From a virus (taxonomy: Duplodnaviria; Heunggongvirae; Uroviricota; Caudoviricetes), in IMG/VR virus record IMGVR_UViG_2778261177_000008: 8,953 nucleotides of DNA; one strand, 5' to 3'. A program made the position numbers and the translations under genes. Below the pieces are notes generated by a model. The model did no database searches. It was not told the DNA's origin and saw only the letters and a list, made by a program, of their open reading frames with translations. Position 1 is the stretch's first letter, and each line of letters starts with the position of its first letter. Shown here one piece after another: positions 500 to 8,953 of this stretch.

Positions 500-847
500 T
501 CAGAACTCTTCGATGTTCCAGCCACCACCTGCTTTCTTTGGCTTAACCGTTACCCCGATGATTCGGAACGGATACTGATCTGCGGCGACTTTGGTTTTCA
601 CTCTGGCGTCATCGGTCCAGAATCCCCCTTTCACTTCGTGCAGCTCCATCTCGCCGGTGGCGAGCATCACAGCGAAATCGGGCGTATAGAACGTGTTATT
701 AGCTAACCGCATCTTGATACCCTCGAACCGATACCAGGCGATTTCCCCTGCACGTTTACGCTGCTCAAGGTGCTGGCAATACGCAGATTCTGTTTTGTTC
801 ATCTGGCCTGTTTTGAGTCGACCAAGAGCCTGTATCTGTTTTCTCAT
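500..847 (-). CDS. Small PD-(D/E)xK-type nuclease, possibly DUF1064-like (tentative)
   Basis: 115-aa ORF with ATG at 847-845 and SD AGGGG about 6 nt upstream. Carries a PD...(D/E)xK-like motif (YTPDF ... ELHEVK). Sits downstream of the P-like gene, where lambdoid phages carry nin-region recombination/resolvase genes. Family assignment is from memory. Confidence 0.55.
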   Translation of the reverse strand: MRKQIQALGRLKTGQMNKTESAYCQHLEQRKRAGEIAWYRFEGIKMRLANNTFYTPDFAVMLATGEMELHEVKGGFWTDDARVKTKVAADQYPFRIIGVTVKPKKAGGGWNIEEF

Positions 848-850
848 GAT

Positions 851-927
851 TTACCCCTGAGGTAATTAAAAACCACATAAGACACGAAATCAATAGATTT
901 TAGAATATTTTATTACCCAAAAGGTAA
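851..927 (-). promoter_or_regulatory. Promoter/operator module: two TTACC-N5-GGTAA palindromes flanking a -35-like TTGATT
   Basis: Perfect palindromes at 851-865 (TTACCcctgaGGTAA) and 913-927 (TTACCcaaaaGGTAA). On the minus strand the order is operator, 19 nt, TTGATT (plus 888-893), 22 nt, operator, then RBS and ATG of the 500..847 gene. An AT-rich -10-like TTTAAT lies 17 nt after the -35. Confidence 0.6.
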
Positions 928-964
928 TTATCGAGACGTAAAAAAATGCGCTATCGCGCTGGTA

Positions 965-2736: not shown

Positions 2737-2814
2737 TTTTTCCGCCCCTTTTTGTTATTGATATTGGCTATTTTGCACAATTGGAAAATTTGATCAACCA
2801 GATTTGGTTTTTTA

Positions 2815-2840: not shown

Positions 2841-2864
2841 AAAAGACCGCCGGATGGCGGTCTA
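2841..2864 (-). terminator. Putative intrinsic terminator downstream of the cro-like gene (tR1-like position)
   Basis: Inverted repeat AGACCGCC (2845-2852), loop GGAT, GGCGGTCT (2857-2864). On the minus-strand transcript the hairpin is followed by UUUU then CAUAUC. Lies about 20 nt past the cro-like stop codon (2885-2887). Confidence 0.55.
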
Positions 2865-2884: not shown

Positions 2885-3115
2885 TCATGAGTAGAAGAAG
2901 TATGCCAGTTCTGCTTTTGAGCGCAGCCATTGTCTTGTTTTACAGGCTTTAAAAAGCCCATTCATCAATACCTTACCTGGCATTTTGCGCTTACCTGTTA
3001 AGTGAGTCTGGATATAGTGACTCGTCGTTCCGGCTTCCTGTGCGAAGGCTTCACGCTCATCCGGAGTAAGTGCAAGCCAGTGCTTTTTGAAATCAAAATG
3101 TCCGTTATCGCTCAT
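2885..3115 (-). CDS. Cro-like small HTH DNA-binding regulator
   Basis: 76-aa ORF with a helix-turn-helix-like segment (REAFAQEAGTTSHYIQTHLTGKRK). Transcribed divergently from the repressor gene across an operator-rich intergenic region and followed by a terminator, as for lambda cro. Confidence 0.6.
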   Translation of the reverse strand: MSDNGHFDFKKHWLALTPDEREAFAQEAGTTSHYIQTHLTGKRKMPGKVLMNGLFKACKTRQWLRSKAELAYFFYS

Positions 3116-3140
3116 AGCTATTGCCTGATATTTATTTCAG

Positions 3141-3214
3141 ATAATAAATATTCACCCATAAGGTAACAAAAATCAAGGATAGTTACCTATGAGGTGCATT
3201 TACCTGATGGGTAA
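3141..3214. promoter_or_regulatory. Divergent promoter/operator region (OR-like) between the cro-like and repressor genes
   Basis: Three operator-like palindromes: 3152-3166 (TCACCcataaGGTAA), 3183-3197 (TTACCtatgaGGTGC) and 3200-3214 (TTACCtgatgGGTAA, perfect). Centres are spaced 31 and 17 bp apart. Leftward promoter candidates on the minus strand: -35 TTGATT (plus 3171-3176) or TTGTTA (plus 3164-3169), with -10 TATTAT (plus 3141-3146). The site at 3152-3166 overlaps the -35/spacer. Confidence 0.6.
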
Positions 3215-3269
3215 TATTGCTTTAAATTGAATCATCTACTGATTCATATATGAGGCGATTTTCCAGAAA

Positions 3270-3854
3270 ATGAAAAGTATCCAGGACGTCCGCAGGCAAA
3301 ATCTCAACGACTTGATCGACCGTGAATTCAATGGTGTTCAGACGCGGATGGCAGAAAAACTTGGAACTCAGGCAAATCTGGTAAACCGCTGGGCTCTTGG
3401 CAAGAAGGTTATCGGCGACCAGGTTGCGCGAAAAATTGAAGCTGCCGCCAATAAACCCCGTAACTGGCTTGATATCGATCGCTCGCTTTCTCAGGAAGGT
3501 TTTCAGCCTGTCGGCCCAAGCGACATTGGCCAGCTGGCGGCTCACAACCTGGAACGCTGGATGAGCGAAAGCCGCGACCTTTCAACACAGGGAAAACTTC
3601 ACCGCGCATCCGGCGTAGCCCAGGTGACAATCAGCCGCCTGTTAAACAATGAGGTCAGCGTTTCCATTTCCACCCTGGAGAATGTTGCATCCGCATTCGG
3701 GCGTCACGGCTATGAATTACTGATTCACCCGCACGACCCTGCGACCATCAACTATGATCGCTCGCGCTACGCATTGTTACCCGAAACCGAGAAAGCAAAG
3801 ATCGAAAGTTACATTGAATTTGTCATCAACCAGAACGAAAAAAGCAAACAATAA
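3270..3854 (+). CDS. Putative prophage repressor (CI-equivalent) with two tandem HTH_XRE-type domains
   Basis: 194-aa ORF with two HTH-like segments (GVQTRMAEKLGTQANLVNRWALGKK and LHRASGVAQVTISRLLNNEVS). No recognisable LexA-like S24 peptidase domain. Sits between the operator cluster and a strong terminator, divergent from the cro-like gene. No good SD: GAGG is 14 nt upstream of the ATG. Confidence 0.7.
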   Translation: MKSIQDVRRQNLNDLIDREFNGVQTRMAEKLGTQANLVNRWALGKKVIGDQVARKIEAAANKPRNWLDIDRSLSQEGFQPVGPSDIGQLAAHNLERWMSESRDLSTQGKLHRASGVAQVTISRLLNNEVSVSISTLENVASAFGRHGYELLIHPHDPATINYDRSRYALLPETEKAKIESYIEFVINQNEKSKQ

Positions 3855-3874: not shown

Positions 3875-3898
3875 AAGCCGCCTCATGGCGGCTTTTTT
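3875..3898 (+). terminator. Rho-independent terminator after the repressor gene
   Basis: GC-rich 8-bp stem AAGCCGCC (3875-3882), loop TCAT, GGCGGCTT (3887-3894), running into TTTTTT (3893-3898). Lies 20 nt downstream of the repressor stop TAA (3852-3854). Confidence 0.75.
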
Positions 3899-3911: not shown

Positions 3912-3988
3912 TTACCTTACGGGTAATTTTTTTAACTCATATCTATTGACACCAAACCAAATAAGCATAATTATTACCTCAACGGTAA
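3912..3988 (+). promoter_or_regulatory. pL-like early-left promoter with two flanking operators
   Basis: Perfect palindromes at 3912-3926 (TTACCttacgGGTAA) and 3974-3988 (TTACCtcaacGGTAA), with consensus -35 TTGACA at 3946-3951. The -10 is AT-rich (AATTAT at 3969-3974 with a 17-nt spacer) and overlaps the second operator. A GGTAA half-site lies at 3996-4000. Spacing is operator, 19 nt, -35, 22 nt, operator. Confidence 0.65.
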
Positions 3989-4007
3989 CAAACCGAGGTA
4001 ACAAGTT

Positions 4008-4160
4008 ATGCAGTGGAAAATCATCAACGGTTGGTACTGCGTTACTGCATGCGGATTCATGAGCTGGAAGTTCCGCACCTTACAGGAAGGCATTAAGTGG
4101 GCTTTCGTCAGCAAAGAAGCTCGCGATGTGGCCAACGATAACGAGATATGGGAGGGCTGA
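4008..4160 (+). CDS. Small hypothetical protein (50 aa), first ORF of the early-left operon
   Basis: ATG at 4008 with GAGG 9 nt upstream; 50 codons, stop TGA at 4158-4160. Sequence MQWKIINGWYCVTACGFMSWKFRTLQEGIKWAFVSKEARDVANDNEIWEG is Trp-rich with a hydrophobic N-terminal segment. Too short for the ORF track. Not Arg-rich, so not N-like. Confidence 0.4.
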   Translation: MQWKIINGWYCVTACGFMSWKFRTLQEGIKWAFVSKEARDVANDNEIWEG

Positions 4161-4162
4161 TA

Positions 4163-4462
4163 ATGAACGTTAATCAGCAGAAAAATCTTCAAAAAATCAT
4201 GCTGGCATTCGACAAGGACTACCGTCTGTCAGAACAGCTATATGACCGACAAGTTGAACTGATTGAGAGTATCCGGCTTCATCAACTGGCATCAACTTTC
4301 GACGTTGTAACAGTTAAAGGCGTTCGCCAGGAAGTACTGGAGGCCGCTAAAGACAGCCCTGAGTTCGAAGAACTGATGGATTCCTACCGGCGCGAGGCAA
4401 TGGCAATTATCGCCCGCTGGGATCTGGCTGATCAGCTTGATGGGCAGAGGGACGCGGCATGA
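4163..4462 (+). CDS. Hypothetical phage protein (99 aa)
   Basis: ORF track starts at 4148, but ATG 4163 has a strong SD GGAGGG (4151-4156) and begins 2 nt after the upstream stop. The stop overlaps the exonuclease start (ATGA at 4459-4462). No family recognised. Confidence 0.55.
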   Translation: MNVNQQKNLQKIMLAFDKDYRLSEQLYDRQVELIESIRLHQLASTFDVVTVKGVRQEVLEAAKDSPEFEELMDSYRREAMAIIARWDLADQLDGQRDAA

Positions 4463-5280
4463 ATCCGGGAATTTATTTCGATATCAGCAACGAGGACTAC
4501 CACGCCGGTGACGGCGTGAGTAAGTCGCAGCTAGATATGGTGGCTAAGAACCCTGCCCTTCTGAAATGGGTGAAGGCTGCTCCGGAAGACGAAGAGAAGA
4601 AGTCTGCACTGGACATGGGTACTGCTCTGCACTGTCTGCTTCTGGAACCTGGAGAGTTTGACAAACGCTTCATCGTTTCACCGAAATTCGATCGTCGGAC
4701 AAAACAAGGTAAAGCTGACGAAGAGGCATTTATTCGTGATGTAGCGGATATGGGGATTTCGGTACTTGATGCAGAGCAGTGGCGAAAACTGGAGCTGATG
4801 CGTGATAGCGCAATGGCTCACCCGGCGGCACGCTGGATGTTGGAAGCACCTGGTTACTGCGAAGCATCAATGTACTGGAACGATGAAGAGACGGGTGAGT
4901 TGTGCCGAATTCGTCCAGACAAATGGCTGAACGAGCACAACGTGATCGTCGACGTGAAAAAGGTTGCAGATATGGACCGTTTTGCACGCCACATCGAGGA
5001 ATTCCGCTACCACGTGCAGGACGCAATGTACCGCGAAGGCGCAATGAGGGTTACTGGTCAGCCGCATGGTTTTTTCTTTCTTGCCGTGAGCGAAAGCATT
5101 GATTGTGGTCGGTATCCGGTACGCGTGTTCGAGCTGGATGCGCCAGATGTCGATGCTGGGCACGCTCTGTTCCGCCGGGATCTGAATACCTATCACGAAT
5201 GCCGCATCAACGATGAATGGGGCGGAGTGGAAATTATTAAACGCCCTGACTGGGCACGTAAACAGGATATGTACGTATGA
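4459..5280 (+). CDS. PD-(D/E)xK-family exonuclease (RecE / exodeoxyribonuclease VIII-like domain), recombination partner of the annealase
   Basis: 273-aa ORF. N-terminal GIYFDISNEDYHAGDGVSKSQLDMV and the motif IRPDKW...VIVDVKK are characteristic of the RecE-like PDDEXK exonuclease family found in prophages (from memory). Translationally coupled to the downstream annealase gene (ATGA at 5277-5280). SD GAGGGA about 8 nt upstream. Confidence 0.7.
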   Translation: MNPGIYFDISNEDYHAGDGVSKSQLDMVAKNPALLKWVKAAPEDEEKKSALDMGTALHCLLLEPGEFDKRFIVSPKFDRRTKQGKADEEAFIRDVADMGISVLDAEQWRKLELMRDSAMAHPAARWMLEAPGYCEASMYWNDEETGELCRIRPDKWLNEHNVIVDVKKVADMDRFARHIEEFRYHVQDAMYREGAMRVTGQPHGFFFLAVSESIDCGRYPVRVFELDAPDVDAGHALFRRDLNTYHECRINDEWGGVEIIKRPDWARKQDMYV

Positions 5281-6158
5281 GCAATGATATCGCAATCACA
5301 TCACAACCAGGCGCAACTGTAGGCACTGCTGCGGCAATCTTCAGCCCCGAGGGCATGAATCAACTGGTGCGTTTCGCGGAGTTGATGTCACAAAGCAAAG
5401 CGACTGTACCGAAACATCTTGAAGGCAAACCTGCCGATTGCCTGGCGGTGACCATGCAGGCGGCACAGTGGGGAATGAACCCTTTCGCCGTGGCGCAGAA
5501 AACGCATGTGGTAAACGGAACGTTAGGCTACGAAGCACAGTTGGTAAACGCGGTCGTATCCTCTTCCAGCCTGCTGGCGACACGCCTGAATTATCGCTGG
5601 AGCGGTGACTGGTCGAATGTTAACGGCAAAACAGATAAATCACCGAATCTGACGGTAACTGTGTCAGCAGTTCTTAAAGGAGAAGCAGAACCCCGTGAGC
5701 TTACCATCAGTATGGCGCAAGCCGGAGTGCGTAACTCTCCATTGTGGGAACAGGATCCGCGCCAGCAACTTGCCTATCTTTGCACGAAACGATGGGCTCG
5801 CCTGCACGCTCCTGATGTACTTCTCGGTGTTTACACCCCAGACGAATTACAGGAAACGGCACCGCGCGTTGAGCGAGACATTACTCCGCAAACGACCACT
5901 GCTGCGGGAATGAACAGTCTGATCAACGCTAAACCAGCGAAAAAGCCTGATGAGCAAACGCGTAAAGCGGATAGCCGTGATCCAGAAGAAATGCTGATGG
6001 CCTTTACCAGCGCAGCGATGAATTACAGCACTGTCTCCGAACTGGATAAGGCTTACAAATACATTGCACAAAAACTTTCAGATGATGACGAACTGCTGGC
6101 AAAAGCCACCGACGTTTACAGCGTTCGTCGGGAAGAATTAAACGAAACATCTATGTAA
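5277..6158 (+). CDS. Single-strand annealing recombinase, Bet/Red-beta-like
   Basis: 293-aa ORF. Shares with lambda Bet, as I recall it, the N-terminal pattern ...A.Q.G.NP... (CLAVTMQAAQWGMNPFAV) and the C-terminal ERDITP motif (VERDITPQ here, PERDITPV in Bet). Immediately follows, and is coupled to, the exonuclease gene. Confidence 0.75.
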   Translation: MSNDIAITSQPGATVGTAAAIFSPEGMNQLVRFAELMSQSKATVPKHLEGKPADCLAVTMQAAQWGMNPFAVAQKTHVVNGTLGYEAQLVNAVVSSSSLLATRLNYRWSGDWSNVNGKTDKSPNLTVTVSAVLKGEAEPRELTISMAQAGVRNSPLWEQDPRQQLAYLCTKRWARLHAPDVLLGVYTPDELQETAPRVERDITPQTTTAAGMNSLINAKPAKKPDEQTRKADSRDPEEMLMAFTSAAMNYSTVSELDKAYKYIAQKLSDDDELLAKATDVYSVRREELNETSM

Positions 6159-6207
6159 CCACCACCGCGGCGCCATACGCGCCGCACTGCAACCAAGAGA
6201 GGTATTT

Positions 6208-6456
6208 ATGAAAGGTGCATTAGGTAAGAAGGAACTCCTGGCGGTGGTGCCACTGTCATGGAGCACTATCGACCGTATGGAGCGCGCAGGGGAATTTCCT
6301 AAACGCTGGTATATCACCGATAAACGCTGCGCATGGAACCGTGATGAAGTTGAGCGTTGGCTTGATGAACGTCAGGCAGCAAGCCCGGCAGAGTTCCAGG
6401 GTAAAAAACCTCCTGTTCAGCAACGTGTATATCGTCCCGTGAGCAACGCGGCATGA
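6208..6456 (+). CDS. AlpA-family prophage regulatory protein / putative excisionase (MerR-like HTH)
   Basis: 82-aa ORF with SD AGAGAGG 5 nt upstream. The pattern LSWSTIDRMERAGEFPKRWYITDKRCAWNRDEVERWLDERQ fits the AlpA/Xis-like winged-helix family (FP+..........W...E...W...R). Lies between the recombination genes and the integrase side, as xis does in lambda. Confidence 0.7.
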   Translation: MKGALGKKELLAVVPLSWSTIDRMERAGEFPKRWYITDKRCAWNRDEVERWLDERQAASPAEFQGKKPPVQQRVYRPVSNAA

Positions 6457-6565
6457 GTGTGCTGCTAAGGCACTGGAGCAAATGGTCAGGATGGTACTTA
6501 TTCCTAGCCTCTGTTTCAGCATGGCTTTATCTGCTGGCATTAATTTTCAGAGAGGGTTGGATTAA

Positions 6566-6865
6566 GTGAGAAAGTTAAGCCGACTTGAAAAATATCACAT
6601 GAACAAGGTTTCAATGCGCAGTCCGTCAAAGATTGTCGCCGTTACTCCTGCGGCGATAGAGATCGAAAAACGCGCGATTGAAAGAGAGAAAAAAGGGCAG
6701 TTCCGCATTGCCGCTCACCTTTGGCTTCAGTGTATGGATGTTGCTTCTGGTGATGTTGAGCGTGCAAGGATCGCGGTTCGCAGGGACCAATGTATCACAA
6801 AAGGTAACGGCCTTCGCCGTGGCGACTATAGCGGCATAGGATGTTGTGGGGTGGTTTATGACTAA
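6566..6865 (+). CDS. Small regulatory protein, PerC-like (tentative)
   Basis: 99-aa ORF; GTG start at 6566 with GAGGG about 9 nt upstream (alternative ATG at 6599). The segment EKKGQFRIAAHLWLQCMDVA...ERARIAVRRDQCI resembles the PerC-family motif as I remember it (LE..G.WRRAA..W...M...RR..C); unverified. Stop TAA 6863-6865 overlaps the methyltransferase start. Confidence 0.4.
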   Translation: MRKLSRLEKYHMNKVSMRSPSKIVAVTPAAIEIEKRAIEREKKGQFRIAAHLWLQCMDVASGDVERARIAVRRDQCITKGNGLRRGDYSGIGCCGVVYD

Positions 6866-7508
6866 GAAATACACACTAATCTATGCAGATCCACCCTGGG
6901 TATACCGGGACAAAGCCGCAGATGGTAATCGCGGTGCCGGTTTTAAATATCCGGTTATGAGTGTGCTGGACATCTGCCGCCTTCCTGTGTGGGATTTGGC
7001 CGATGAAAACTGTCTGTTGGCCATGTGGTGGGTGCCAACACAACCACTCGAAGCACTTAAAGTTGTTGAAGCATGGGGATTCCGTCTGATGACCATGAAG
7101 GGCTTCACGTGGATAAAATGTGGTAGTCGACAACCAGATAAACTGGTTATGGGTATGGGTCACATGACTCGCGCCAATAGTGAAGATTGCCTGTTTGCGG
7201 TAAAGGGAAAACTACCTACGCGCATTAATGCAGGGATCGTTCAGTCATTTACCGCACCGCGGCTTGAGCATTCAAGAAAACCAGATATCGTTCGTGAAAA
7301 ACTTGTGCAATTGTTAGGCGATGTTTCTCGCATTGAACTGTTCGCCCGCCAGTCATCTCATGGTTTCGATGTTTGGGGTAATCAGTGCGAAGACCCGGCA
7401 GTGCAACTACATCCTGGATACGCGTTGGATATTGGCGGATTAACAAATGCATTCAGCAATGCTCCGCTGTCACCAACAGACAACCAGGGGCAGGAGCGTG
7501 CAGCATGA
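6858..7508 (+). CDS. MT-A70-family DNA N6-adenine methyltransferase (orphan, phage-type)
   Basis: The N-terminal YTLIYADPPW contains the canonical DPPW catalytic motif of N6-adenine methyltransferases, and the length and layout fit phage MT-A70 enzymes. Start is ATG 6858, or GTG 6846 as in the ORF track. No restriction endonuclease gene is adjacent. Stop TGA 7506-7508 overlaps the next ATG. Confidence 0.8.
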   Translation: MTKKYTLIYADPPWVYRDKAADGNRGAGFKYPVMSVLDICRLPVWDLADENCLLAMWWVPTQPLEALKVVEAWGFRLMTMKGFTWIKCGSRQPDKLVMGMGHMTRANSEDCLFAVKGKLPTRINAGIVQSFTAPRLEHSRKPDIVREKLVQLLGDVSRIELFARQSSHGFDVWGNQCEDPAVQLHPGYALDIGGLTNAFSNAPLSPTDNQGQERAA

Positions 7509-7699
7509 ACAGGACATCACCAGCAGATTTAAGGAAATGCCTTGAAACTGCAAACATGCTTGCACACAGCGGGATCAGGTTTGTTCCAATTCCCGCTGTC
7601 ACTGATGCTGAATTTGCAACACTGTCAGCAATATTCGCAGATAAAATTGAATCACTGGCAGCAGAAGCCGAGATGGAAGAAAATCAGCAGAATAATTAA
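7505..7699 (+). CDS. Small hypothetical protein (64 aa) coupled to the methyltransferase
   Basis: ATG 7505 overlaps the methyltransferase stop (ATGA), with SD AGGAG 8 nt upstream. Sequence MNRTSPADLRKCLETANMLAHSGIRFVPIPAVTDAEFATLSAIFADKIESLAAEAEMEENQQNN has an acidic C-terminus. The ORF track's 7385 start lies inside the methyltransferase gene. No family recognised. Confidence 0.45.
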   Translation: MNRTSPADLRKCLETANMLAHSGIRFVPIPAVTDAEFATLSAIFADKIESLAAEAEMEENQQNN

Positions 7700-7702
7700 A
7701 CG

Positions 7703-8953
7703 TTATTCCCCCGCCATCCACTTCTCAAACTTCGACGGGGAGAACGGAATCAGATCCGTATGCTCCCCGTTAATCCATGAATCAATCATATCGGCCCACT
7801 GCTGCAACATGTAGGCGCGCTGTCTGGCGTATTCCGCTTTGTTATATACGGCGCGCACACCTTTCTGCTCATGTGCCAGAGCCTTTTCAATCCAGTCTGA
7901 AGGATAACCAGCCTCATGCAACAACGTACTGGCTGTACGGCGCATATCGTGTACGGTGAAGTCCTGAATATGCTCACCATCTTCCTTTATTATTTTCACC
8001 GTTCTGTCGATCAGAGAGTTCAGCGCGGCATTAGATAATGGCTTCCGGAAGTTGTAACGACCAGGAACCAGATATTCACTTCCACCAGCGCACATCTGCA
8101 ACCCGACCAATATATCCTGTGCCTGTTTAGGCAGGTAAATAACGTGCGCCCGGCTTCCCTTCATGCGGTCTGAAGGAATTGTCCATGTCCATTTTTTAAA
8201 ATCTATTTCGTCCCACGTTGCATTGGTGAATTCGCCTTTACGAACCATAGTGATAAGCACCAGCTTTAAAGCCATTTTCATAGTGCCCATAGCACCAATG
8301 GCATCCAGCGTGCGGAAGAACAGGCCAATTTCTTCTGGTGTCAGTGTTCGCTCTCGTGGTTTAAATATGGCGATAGACGAAGGTTTAATGTCAGCCGCAG
8401 GATTAAACAAACCATGACCACGGTCATTGGCGTGACGGTATACGCTGCTGATGATCTCCCTGGCCTGCACTGCTGTTGCCCGGCCACCGCGTTCGACAAT
8501 CCGGTCACACAAATCACGAACCATCGATGTGGTAATTTCAGCCATCATTTTGTTGCCAAGAACCGGAAGTATGTCACGGTCGATCACTGCCTGCTTCATT
8601 GCGCGGGTACTTTCAGCCAGGATGACGTGTTTCATATAACTGTCGGTATGTACCGCAAACGTCTCGGCACCACGAATCTTTTTTATACCGTCACGTTTAG
8701 CCGCAGCCGGTGACTGGCCTGCTTTAAGCAGCTTCTTTGCAGCAATCAGTTCTTCTCGCGCTTCTGCCAGGCTGATACCGTCACTCCCATACTGCCCGAT
8801 TACCAGCGTTTCGCGGCGACCGTTGATACGGTAGTCGTAGCGAAACGAGACCGTGCCTGACGTAAGCACAGCTACATACAGCCCATCACGATCGGAGACC
8901 TTGTACAGTTTGTCCTGCGGCTTGAGGTTTTTTAATTTTGTATCGGTAAGCAC
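7703..8953 (-). CDS. int: Tyrosine recombinase / integrase, P4 (CP4-57 IntA-like) family; 5' end at or just beyond the window edge
   Basis: 416 codons, open to the window end. The N-terminal LTDTKLKNLKPQDKLYKVSDRDGLYVAVLTSG matches the arm-binding domain of P4-type integrases. The C-terminal region has the HxxR box (HDMRRT) and conserved Tyr-containing region of tyrosine recombinases. The first codon in the window is GTG, so a few N-terminal residues probably lie outside. Confidence 0.9.
   Translation of the reverse strand: MLTDTKLKNLKPQDKLYKVSDRDGLYVAVLTSGTVSFRYDYRINGRRETLVIGQYGSDGISLAEAREELIAAKKLLKAGQSPAAAKRDGIKKIRGAETFAVHTDSYMKHVILAESTRAMKQAVIDRDILPVLGNKMMAEITTSMVRDLCDRIVERGGRATAVQAREIISSVYRHANDRGHGLFNPAADIKPSSIAIFKPRERTLTPEEIGLFFRTLDAIGAMGTMKMALKLVLITMVRKGEFTNATWDEIDFKKWTWTIPSDRMKGSRAHVIYLPKQAQDILVGLQMCAGGSEYLVPGRYNFRKPLSNAALNSLIDRTVKIIKEDGEHIQDFTVHDMRRTASTLLHEAGYPSDWIEKALAHEQKGVRAVYNKAEYARQRAYMLQQWADMIDSWINGEHTDLIPFSPSKFEKWMAGE

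Follow-up and report, generated by a model that had tools for sequence, protein, structure and literature searches.

The DNA analyzed here, a window of 8,953 nucleotides, carries the short palindrome TTACC-N5-GGTAA, or a close variant, at eight places, which raises the question of which protein reads these sites and what they control. The earlier note had proposed that they are operators on early promoters for a 194-aa helix-turn-helix (HTH) repressor, and this is supported by the homology of that repressor (Rep), by the annotation of phage epsilon15 and by the conserved positions of the sites. On this sequence evidence, we consider it very probable that all eight palindromes are operators of the prophage's own Rep.

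Sequence comparison assigns the window to a temperate podovirus of the phiV10/epsilon15-like group (Uetakevirus) that is common as an Escherichia coli prophage, and shows that it covers the immunity and early region. The immunity region is 97-99% identical to those of Escherichia phages HEMP4, vB_EcoP_ZX5, TL-2011b and phiV10, and the whole window is found at a coverage of at least 80% in 333 of 5426 complete E. coli genomes. The gene order is that of phiV10, from whose annotation the gene calls were taken by homology:

500-847, minus strand: DUF1064/resolvase-like gene, with its ATG at 847
940-959, minus strand: weak terminator-like hairpin (GCGC stem, 4-nt loop, GCGC, T run) that ends the replication operon, just upstream of site 913
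Beyond the terminator of the 76-aa gene: a 70-aa ORF, followed by the DnaT-like and lambda-P-like replication genes and by a weak terminator
2844-2863, minus strand: intrinsic terminator after the cro-like gene (terminator scan; annotated in phiV10)
2885-3115, minus strand: gene for a 76-aa Cro-like HTH protein, a homologue of epsilon15 gp39 (phrog_35 transcriptional repressor, E 5.6e-13)
3270-3854, plus strand: rep, the 194-aa repressor, with an N-terminal HTH DNA-binding domain, a middle HTH-fold dimerization domain and a C-terminal tetramerization and Ant-binding domain
3875-3894, plus strand: intrinsic terminator after rep (terminator scan; annotated in phiV10)
4008-7699, plus strand: early-left operon (exonuclease, RecT, AlpA-type protein, PerC-like protein, adenine methylase)
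7703-8953, minus strand: integrase gene, as in the phiV10 order

A putative terminator is annotated in phiV10 at the place equivalent to the 940-959 hairpin. Candidate ori repeats are present inside a replication gene, and their sequence differs from TTACC-N5-GGTAA.

An exact search of the window returned five perfect copies of TTACC-N5-GGTAA (starting at 851, 913, 3200, 3912 and 3974), against an expectation of 0.00 derived from 200 dinucleotide-preserving shuffles, none of which contained a perfect site. When one mismatch was tolerated, seven sites were found against 0.17 expected (largest shuffle 2), the additions being 2815, with a GGTAC arm, and 3152, with a TCACC arm. Two mismatches gave 11 matches against 2.63 expected, adding 3183 (GGTGC arm) and three matches at 2290, 2991 and 4497. 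A chance origin of the motif is ruled out by these three comparisons. The mismatch-tolerant search recovered all eight coordinates listed in the earlier note, whose count of four perfect sites has to be raised to five.

The placement of the sites is equally non-random. Non-coding DNA makes up only 685 of the 8953 bases (7.65%), and all seven sites with at most one mismatch, together with 3183, fall within it, for which the probability is approximately 1e-9 under random placement. At up to two mismatches, the only matches in coding DNA are those at 2290, 2991 and 4497, which is about the chance number, so the claim that no site lies inside a coding region stands. The same bias is visible for the TTACC half-site, whose density is 11.7 per kb in non-coding DNA versus 1.1 per kb in coding DNA, a roughly tenfold difference.

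Base composition was assessed over 46 sites from six genomes. In this sample, arm positions A3, C4 and C5 are conserved at 99-100% and T1 and T2 at about 90%, and the arms extend weakly to ATTACC/GGTAAT. The spacer had been described as lacking a conserved sequence, which is correct, but it is not random: A/T accounts for 76% of its bases and for 94% of the central ones. A spacer that is free in sequence yet biased in composition suggests indirect readout.

The sites and the promoter-like elements that they accompany were mapped as follows:

851-865: perfect operator, TTACCCCTGAGGTAA, the downstream member of the Pnin pair; starts at the last -10 base and covers the start site and 5' leader of the DUF1064/resolvase-like gene
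865-893, minus strand: Pnin, promoter-like element of the DUF1064/resolvase-like gene, read by eye; TTGATT (893-888), 17-nt spacer, TTTAAT (870-865)
913-927: perfect operator, TTACCCAAAAGGTAA, the upstream partner of 851 in the Pnin pair at a distance of 62 bp; ends 19 nt before the -35
2770-2797, minus strand: conserved promoter-like element; TTGATC (2797-2792), 16-nt spacer, CAAAAT (2775-2770); 17 nt downstream of site 2815
2815-2829: operator with one mismatch, TTACCTTTGAGGTAC, between the cro-like gene terminator and the 2770-2797 promoter-like element; orthologue in all relatives
3141-3176, minus strand: PR-like promoter of the cro-like gene; TTGTTA (3169-3164), 17-nt spacer, TATTAT (3146-3141), and/or the conserved TTGATT (3176-3171)
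3152-3166: operator with one mismatch, TCACCCATAAGGTAA, inside the PR-like promoter core, in its spacer
3183-3197: operator with two mismatches, TTACCTATGAGGTGC; weak here, although the Klebsiella, SPC32H and epsilon15 types have a perfect site in its place
3200-3214: perfect operator, TTACCTGATGGGTAA, 17 bp from 3183 and nearest to rep
3912-3926: perfect operator, TTACCTTACGGGTAA, the upstream partner in the PL-like pair; ends 19 nt before the -35
3946-3974, plus strand: PL-like promoter of the exo/recT/xis/methylase operon, found by a consensus scan; TTGACA, 17-nt spacer, AATTAT (10/12 consensus matches)
3974-3988: perfect operator, TTACCTCAACGGTAA; starts at the last PL-like -10 base and covers the start site; 62 bp from 3912

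The three-site cluster at 3152, 3183 and 3200 had been described as overlapping the leftward promoter, and site 3152 does indeed lie inside a consensus promoter reading towards the 76-aa gene. The block AAAAATCAA, which reads TTGATT on the minus strand (3176-3171) and is the alternative -35 of the PR-like promoter, is invariant in the alignment of this region (A2), as is the PL-like block CTATTGAC in alignment A3. The Pnin and PL-like modules share the same geometry and can be aligned despite little other similarity. Pnin was missed by the consensus promoter scan because its -10 lacks an A at position 2, but its -35 block CTATTGA is invariant in alignment A4, in which the 940-959 hairpin is also kept, and the neighboring site 851 has orthologues in Tyrion, Klebsiella, SPC32H and epsilon15. 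The 2770-2797 element is a predicted promoter whose GGTTGATC sequence is invariant in four phages (A5), and it would read into the 70-aa ORF and the replication genes. For rep itself, no convincing -35/-10 pair was seen in 3215-3269, and none was returned on the plus strand by the consensus scan. The GGTAAC at 3996, downstream of 3974, might be taken for a further half-site, but the ribosome-binding site (GAGG) of a 50-aa ORF is the simpler reading, and the sequence is not conserved in the SPC32H and Klebsiella types.

Centre-to-centre spacings are 31 and 17 bp within the 3152/3183/3200 cluster and 62 bp within both the 851/913 and 3912/3974 pairs, in agreement with the values of 17, 31 and 62 bp given previously. 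These had been taken to indicate helical phasing along one face of the DNA. At 10.5 bp per turn, this is true of 31 bp (2.95 turns) and 62 bp (5.9 turns), both of which are in phase, but not of the 17 bp between 3183 and 3200 (1.6 turns) or the 18 bp between paired sites at terS in related phages (1.7 turns). Sites 3183 and 3200 abut exactly when taken as 17-mers, and they lie on different helix faces because 17 bp corresponds to 1.6 turns. That these spacings are retained without indels, not only from one diverged phage to the next but also between two unrelated promoter modules within a genome, is a stronger argument for function than phasing.

To follow the sites across relatives, we scanned the phages Tyrion, Klebsiella BUCT711, SPC32H and epsilon15, along with prophages of Superficieibacter, Erwinia dacicola, Klebsiella, two Citrobacter species and Scandinavium. 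The positions and spacings of the sites are conserved in phages and prophages from seven genera, and in the alignments the arms and -35 blocks do not vary, whereas the spacers and flanks do. All scanned relatives have three sites between rep and the cro-like gene (OR), 30/31 and 17 bp apart, and a pair at the early-left promoter (OL) whose members are 62-63 bp apart, or 60 bp in the Scandinavium prophage. Immunity regions of the SPC32H/epsilon15 type, carried by SPC32H and epsilon15 as well as by the two Citrobacter prophages and that of Scandinavium, add a third OL site at a further 76-80 bp. Where the flanks are long enough, the single site after the cro terminator is also present, and so is the 62-bp pair ahead of the gene beyond the replication module.

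The earlier note had also asked for a genome-wide comparison of observed and expected motif counts. With at most one mismatch, there are 14 sites in phiV10 (39.1 kb) against 0.78 expected and 15 in epsilon15 against 0.63 expected. Every one of these lies in promoter-bearing intergenic DNA, except for one epsilon15 match inside gp14, which equals the chance number. Sites precede terS (as a pair 18 bp apart), gp3, the lysis cassette, int and the nin-like gene, lie beside the ant and tailspike genes, and occupy OL, OR and the position after the cro terminator. The annotated terS of phiV10 includes two of its sites (87-119); since an in-frame ATG at 122 gives the length of epsilon15 terS, the annotated phiV10 terS start is probably too early.

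A phmmer search against the PDB matched residues 1-190 of Rep to the crystallized Rep of SPC32H (5D50_A, E 3.5e-42). The two proteins are 43% identical, as are this Rep and that of epsilon15, and conserved blocks occur in all three regions. The N-terminal HTH domain spans about residues 1-70, with a recognition helix at N36-W41, and this N36-L-V-N-R-W41 stretch is invariant in five Reps that are 43-78% identical, from phages of E. coli, Enterobacter, Klebsiella and Salmonella (A1). Pfam analysis of Rep indicated HTH families only, namely HTH_3 at 106-147 and a weak YdaS-type HTH at 21-61. The same search found no Peptidase_S24 domain in Rep, which therefore does not appear to be a lambda-type RecA-cleaved repressor. 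An IMG/VR survey with the Rep alignment returned 80 loci whose Reps were all 99-100% identical and thus added no diversity; useful diversity came from a one-genome-per-species collection.

Among the relatives scanned, the motif is present wherever the helix NLVNRW or TLVNRW is present. Conversely, no TTACC-N5-GGTAA was found within 1.5 kb in relatives that share only the N-terminal domain and carry another recognition helix (Paraburkholderia, Hydrogenovibrio and Thiomicrospira). As judged from these genomes, the motif goes with the Rep recognition helix.

Rep is 99.5% identical to the repressors of phiV10 and phage ZX5, and overexpression of the ZX5 repressor shifted that phage towards lysogeny (PMC9782041). 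In the literature that we found, no operator is described for phiV10-type phages; the only relevant paper, on vB_EcoP_ZX5 (PMC9782041), maps none. The phiV10 record, which is the type closest to the window, annotates terminators and no operators. In contrast, the epsilon15 record (AY150271.2) contains seven features labelled 'protein_bind: repressor, lysogeny', and all seven read (A)TTACC-N5-GGTAAT when extracted. The epsilon15 annotation thus carries the same motif, which means that the earlier note had rediscovered the epsilon15 repressor operator in a phiV10-type prophage.

Other origins for the palindromes have to be weighed against this. They could act as RNA hairpins in termination, processing or translation, and sites 851 and 3974 are probably within the first transcript bases, with 851 overlapping the ribosome-binding region of the DUF1064 gene. 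However, a 5-bp stem with a 5-nt AT-rich loop is a marginal hairpin, the nearby real terminators are separate GC-rich hairpins, and sites 913, 3912, 2815, 3183 and 3200 are upstream of promoters and hence outside the relevant transcript. In addition, the arms are invariant without covariation over the 46 sites, and the departures TCACC, GGTGC and GGTAC break pairing with no compensating change, which leaves a role as RNA extremely improbable. Binding by a different factor, such as a host protein, or use as integrase arm sites, replication iterons or a packaging signal, is opposed by the association with the Rep recognition helix described above, and by the dispersal of the motif over about nine promoter regions with no origin- or att-like cluster. 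It is true that the sites always accompany promoters, which would also fit a shared promoter architecture, and that the epsilon15 record annotates IHF sites nearby. Yet the integrase sites in that record are separate and different, the candidate ori repeats do not match the motif, and neither the -35 nor the -10 hexamer is formed by the palindrome. We therefore regard this second group of explanations as highly improbable.

The 76-aa Cro-like protein is a more serious candidate, as it could also bind the same palindromes in competition with Rep, in the manner of Cro in lambda, 434 and P22, or, in the strong form of this proposal, be their main ligand. The protein is a member of the phrog_35 family of phage transcriptional repressors, transcription from the promoter overlapped by site 3152 reaches its gene first, and its HTH can be weakly aligned with the N-terminal HTH of Rep (27% over 41 residues, pairwise E 0.001). 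Identity to epsilon15 gp39 is 76%, and the protein is more conserved across the genus than Rep. Its HTH, AGTTSHYIQTHLTG, is invariant across the genus, so its DNA target must be conserved too, as the TTACC-N5-GGTAA sites are. Against this, the recognition-helix residues differ (TSHYIQTH in the Cro-like protein, QANLVNRW in Rep), and other genus-wide blocks, namely AAAAATCAA, GGTTGATC and CTATTGA, could be its target instead. Furthermore, the Cro-like protein cannot replace Rep as the lysogenic ligand, given that both the epsilon15 annotation and the work on SPC32H assign repression to Rep. Taken as a whole, the proposal is possible but somewhat doubtful, while simple sharing of the Rep operators by the Cro-like protein is plausible from these sequence comparisons.

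With Rep retained as the probable ligand, the geometry of the sites suggests how repression might work. Two N-terminal HTH domains of Rep would bind one palindrome, each reading a TTACC half-site, and since the half-sites are 10 bp apart, they would present successive major grooves with the AT-rich 5-bp spacer between them. Two papers describe SPC32H Rep as a tetramer on palindromic DNA in which each DNA-binding pair comes from subunits of different dimers (PMC9638917; PMC9986798), and one of these assigns DNA binding, dimerization, and tetramerization plus Ant binding to the N-terminal, middle and C-terminal domains, respectively (PMC9986798). The earlier idea of a dimeric HTH protein contacting the outer arms thus holds as regards two HTH domains per palindrome, but the characterized homologue is not a plain dimer. 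If the protein encoded here is a tetramer like its SPC32H homologue, its four DNA-binding domains could hold two palindromes at once, which would explain the fixed site pairs. By analogy, we infer that one tetramer may span a 17-bp pair or a 62-bp loop, and looping between distant sites is plausible on the same grounds. The same paper, from 2023, describes the structural mechanism of repression by SPC32H Rep as still not extensively characterized (PMC9986798).

At the PL-like promoter and Pnin, the 62-bp pair would block access of RNA polymerase and probably hold the DNA in a small loop. In the rep/cro region, site 3152 would act within the PR-like core and the abutting pair 3183/3200 probably also autoregulates rep, while the single site 2815 would act on the conserved promoter-like element that it precedes, just after the cro terminator. 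As the motif stands before nearly every operon in the complete genomes of relatives, including terS and the head, ant/tailspike, lysis and int genes, Rep is probably a direct silencer of almost every transcription unit.

Induction would not involve RecA-stimulated cleavage. According to the literature on SPC32H, the antirepressor Ant inactivates Rep and the ant gene is repressed by LexA. A small, LexA-controlled Ant may likewise bind the Rep C-terminal domain here and break the DNA-bound tetramer. The protein p24 of phiV10 matches SPC32H Ant (PDB 5D50_E, E 2.9e-46), and a canonical LexA box, CTGTATAAATACACAG, is located upstream of p24 at phiV10 20822-20837. The Ant gene and LexA box are seen in relatives, in a region beyond the window.

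These elements can be joined into a single, more ambitious reading. One tetrameric repressor would silence essentially every prophage unit (late, lysis, antirepressor and integrase) directly and without a cascade, by means of fixed 62-bp loop-clamped pairs and abutting 17-18-bp pairs. Approximately 14 dispersed operators would lock the genus (phages of E. coli, Salmonella, Klebsiella, Enterobacter, Citrobacter and others) into one specificity despite 57% repressor divergence, and the Cro-like protein would use the same sites. We consider it rather unlikely that this reading holds in every part.

The operator system itself is already known from epsilon15 and SPC32H; the window holds its orthologue in a prophage that is common in E. 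coli. The modest novelty lies in an explicit map of the sites for the phiV10 type, in the fixed geometry of operators that bracket promoters and in the sharing of one operator specificity by the genus. The main value is for annotation: the sites point to the immunity operators and to the early promoters of a prophage type that occurs in about 6% of complete E. coli genomes, and records of the phiV10 type annotate none of them. The comparative map also supplies a testable geometry for the structurally unusual, tetrameric SPC32H Rep on DNA, with 62-bp promoter-bracketing pairs, abutting 17-bp pairs, sites before nearly every operon and genus-wide specificity, while the basic understanding of phage repression is unchanged.

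The closest comparison is with epsilon15 itself, where the repressor is gp38. The consensus, the 62-bp pair spacing and the repressor family are shared, as are two operator locations, one between rep and the early-left operon and the other ahead of the gene that comes after the replication module. The differences are that epsilon15 has three OL sites instead of two, that the repressor here is only 43% identical to gp38 overall, and that the seven sites in the epsilon15 record omit the three between rep and gp39, as well as several others found by our scan.

The Rep/Ant/LexA switch of SPC32H was reportedly described by Kim and Ryu in 2013 (J Virol) and by Kim et al. in 2016 (PNAS). The window shares with it (PDB 5D50 and 5D4Z) a full-length Rep homologue of three-domain layout with no self-cleavage domain, as well as the operator type and spacing, and the phiV10 type has a close homologue of Ant with a LexA box. 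The middle and C-terminal parts of Rep have diverged between the two. The group to which the window belongs also has an extra CTGA-N8-TCAG palindrome at the cro-like transcript start, which the SPC32H type lacks.

Compared with the CI/Cro systems of lambda, 434 and P22, the general plan is familiar. Three palindromic operators of graded quality (3152, 3183 and 3200) lie between a repressor gene and a cro gene that are transcribed divergently, a terminator follows the repressor gene, a second operator set (3912 and 3974) lies downstream of that gene on the early-left promoter, and binding is probably cooperative. Neighboring operators are 20-24 bp apart in those phages versus 17 bp here. Unlike their repressors, Rep has no S24 protease domain and is not expected to undergo RecA-dependent cleavage; by analogy with SPC32H, it would be a tetramer whose DNA-binding pairs form in trans. 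The 62-bp operator pairs that bracket promoters are a further difference, as are the operators at the late, lysis and int promoters of relatives. Lambdoid phages also have many immunity types, whereas this genus has one operator specificity. From its sequence, then, the layout works like that of lambda, yet Rep lies outside the lambda-type CI protein family.

In its mode of action, Rep may also be compared with the short-loop tetrameric repressors, such as those acting at lac O1/O3 and gal OE/OI, and Rco of pLS20. In these systems, as here, a promoter is flanked by two operators whose separation keeps them in phase (in the window, 62 bp or about 5.9 turns), with a tetramer that is predicted here from the SPC32H homologue. 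The tetramerization domain of SPC32H Rep is reported (PMC9986798) to have the same fold as that of the loop-forming Rco. The putative 62-bp loop would be shorter than that between lac O1 and O3 (92 bp) or that of gal (114 bp).

Between the divergent genes for the 194-aa repressor (rep) and the 76-aa Cro-like protein, the sequence itself reveals a further symmetrical element:

3125-3140, perfect palindrome CTGATATTTATTTCAG, CTGA-N8-TCAG

This palindrome lies directly 3' of the -10 element of the PR-like promoter, where the transcript of the cro-like gene begins. Its CTG-N10-CAG core and its centre, made up of A and T only, are those of a LexA box, but both inner positions are altered relative to that box; LexA or another regulator could bind here. 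Among the immunity regions compared, the palindrome is kept in those of the phiV10 type (Tyrion, Superficieibacter and Erwinia dacicola) and is missing in the epsilon15, SPC32H and Klebsiella types. The protein encoded by this transcript (window 2885-3115, minus strand; compared with L004 33442-33672) is 76% identical to epsilon15 gp39, and across the genus it is far more conserved than the repressor that it opposes (43%). On the other side of the region, the rep ATG (window 3255-3272, ttttccagaaaATG) lacks a recognisable Shine-Dalgarno sequence in front of it, and the DNA upstream of rep yielded no convincing promoter. The rep transcript may be leaderless or nearly so.

Tyrion carries an additional TTACC half-site just 5' of the upstream site of OL, the operator pair on the early-left promoter (L005 5140-5170, GATTACCTGACAATTACCCCACAGGTAAT), apparently a partly duplicated operator arm. 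The immunity region of the window was also observed in two 'phage' records, PP488543.1 (BP9, 138 kb) and PP350014.1 (PH444, 115 kb), whose length is three times that of a Uetakevirus genome. In E. coli plasmids, 211 places match parts of the window.

Comparison with related phages also bears on the gene calls in the phiV10 record. There, the terS start is annotated at 41, which places the repressor sites at 87-101 and 105-119 within the gene (L003, 41-122). An in-frame ATG at 122 would give a terS equal in length to that of epsilon15, in which the repressor sites are directly upstream of the gene start; the annotated start at 41 is probably incorrect. The exonuclease and RecT are encoded by two separate, overlapping ORFs in the window (4459-6158, compared with L001 6668-8428), as they are in TL-2011b and epsilon15, whereas a single fused 'RecET' CDS is annotated in phiV10.

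The DnaT-like replication gene contains two copies of a 28-nt element:

2159-2186, first copy
2368-2395, second copy

The copies are 89% identical, lie 209 bp apart and both contain the palindrome GTAACGC-N5-GCGTTAC. These elements are candidate replication-origin repeats and, like those of lambda, they sit inside the initiator gene.
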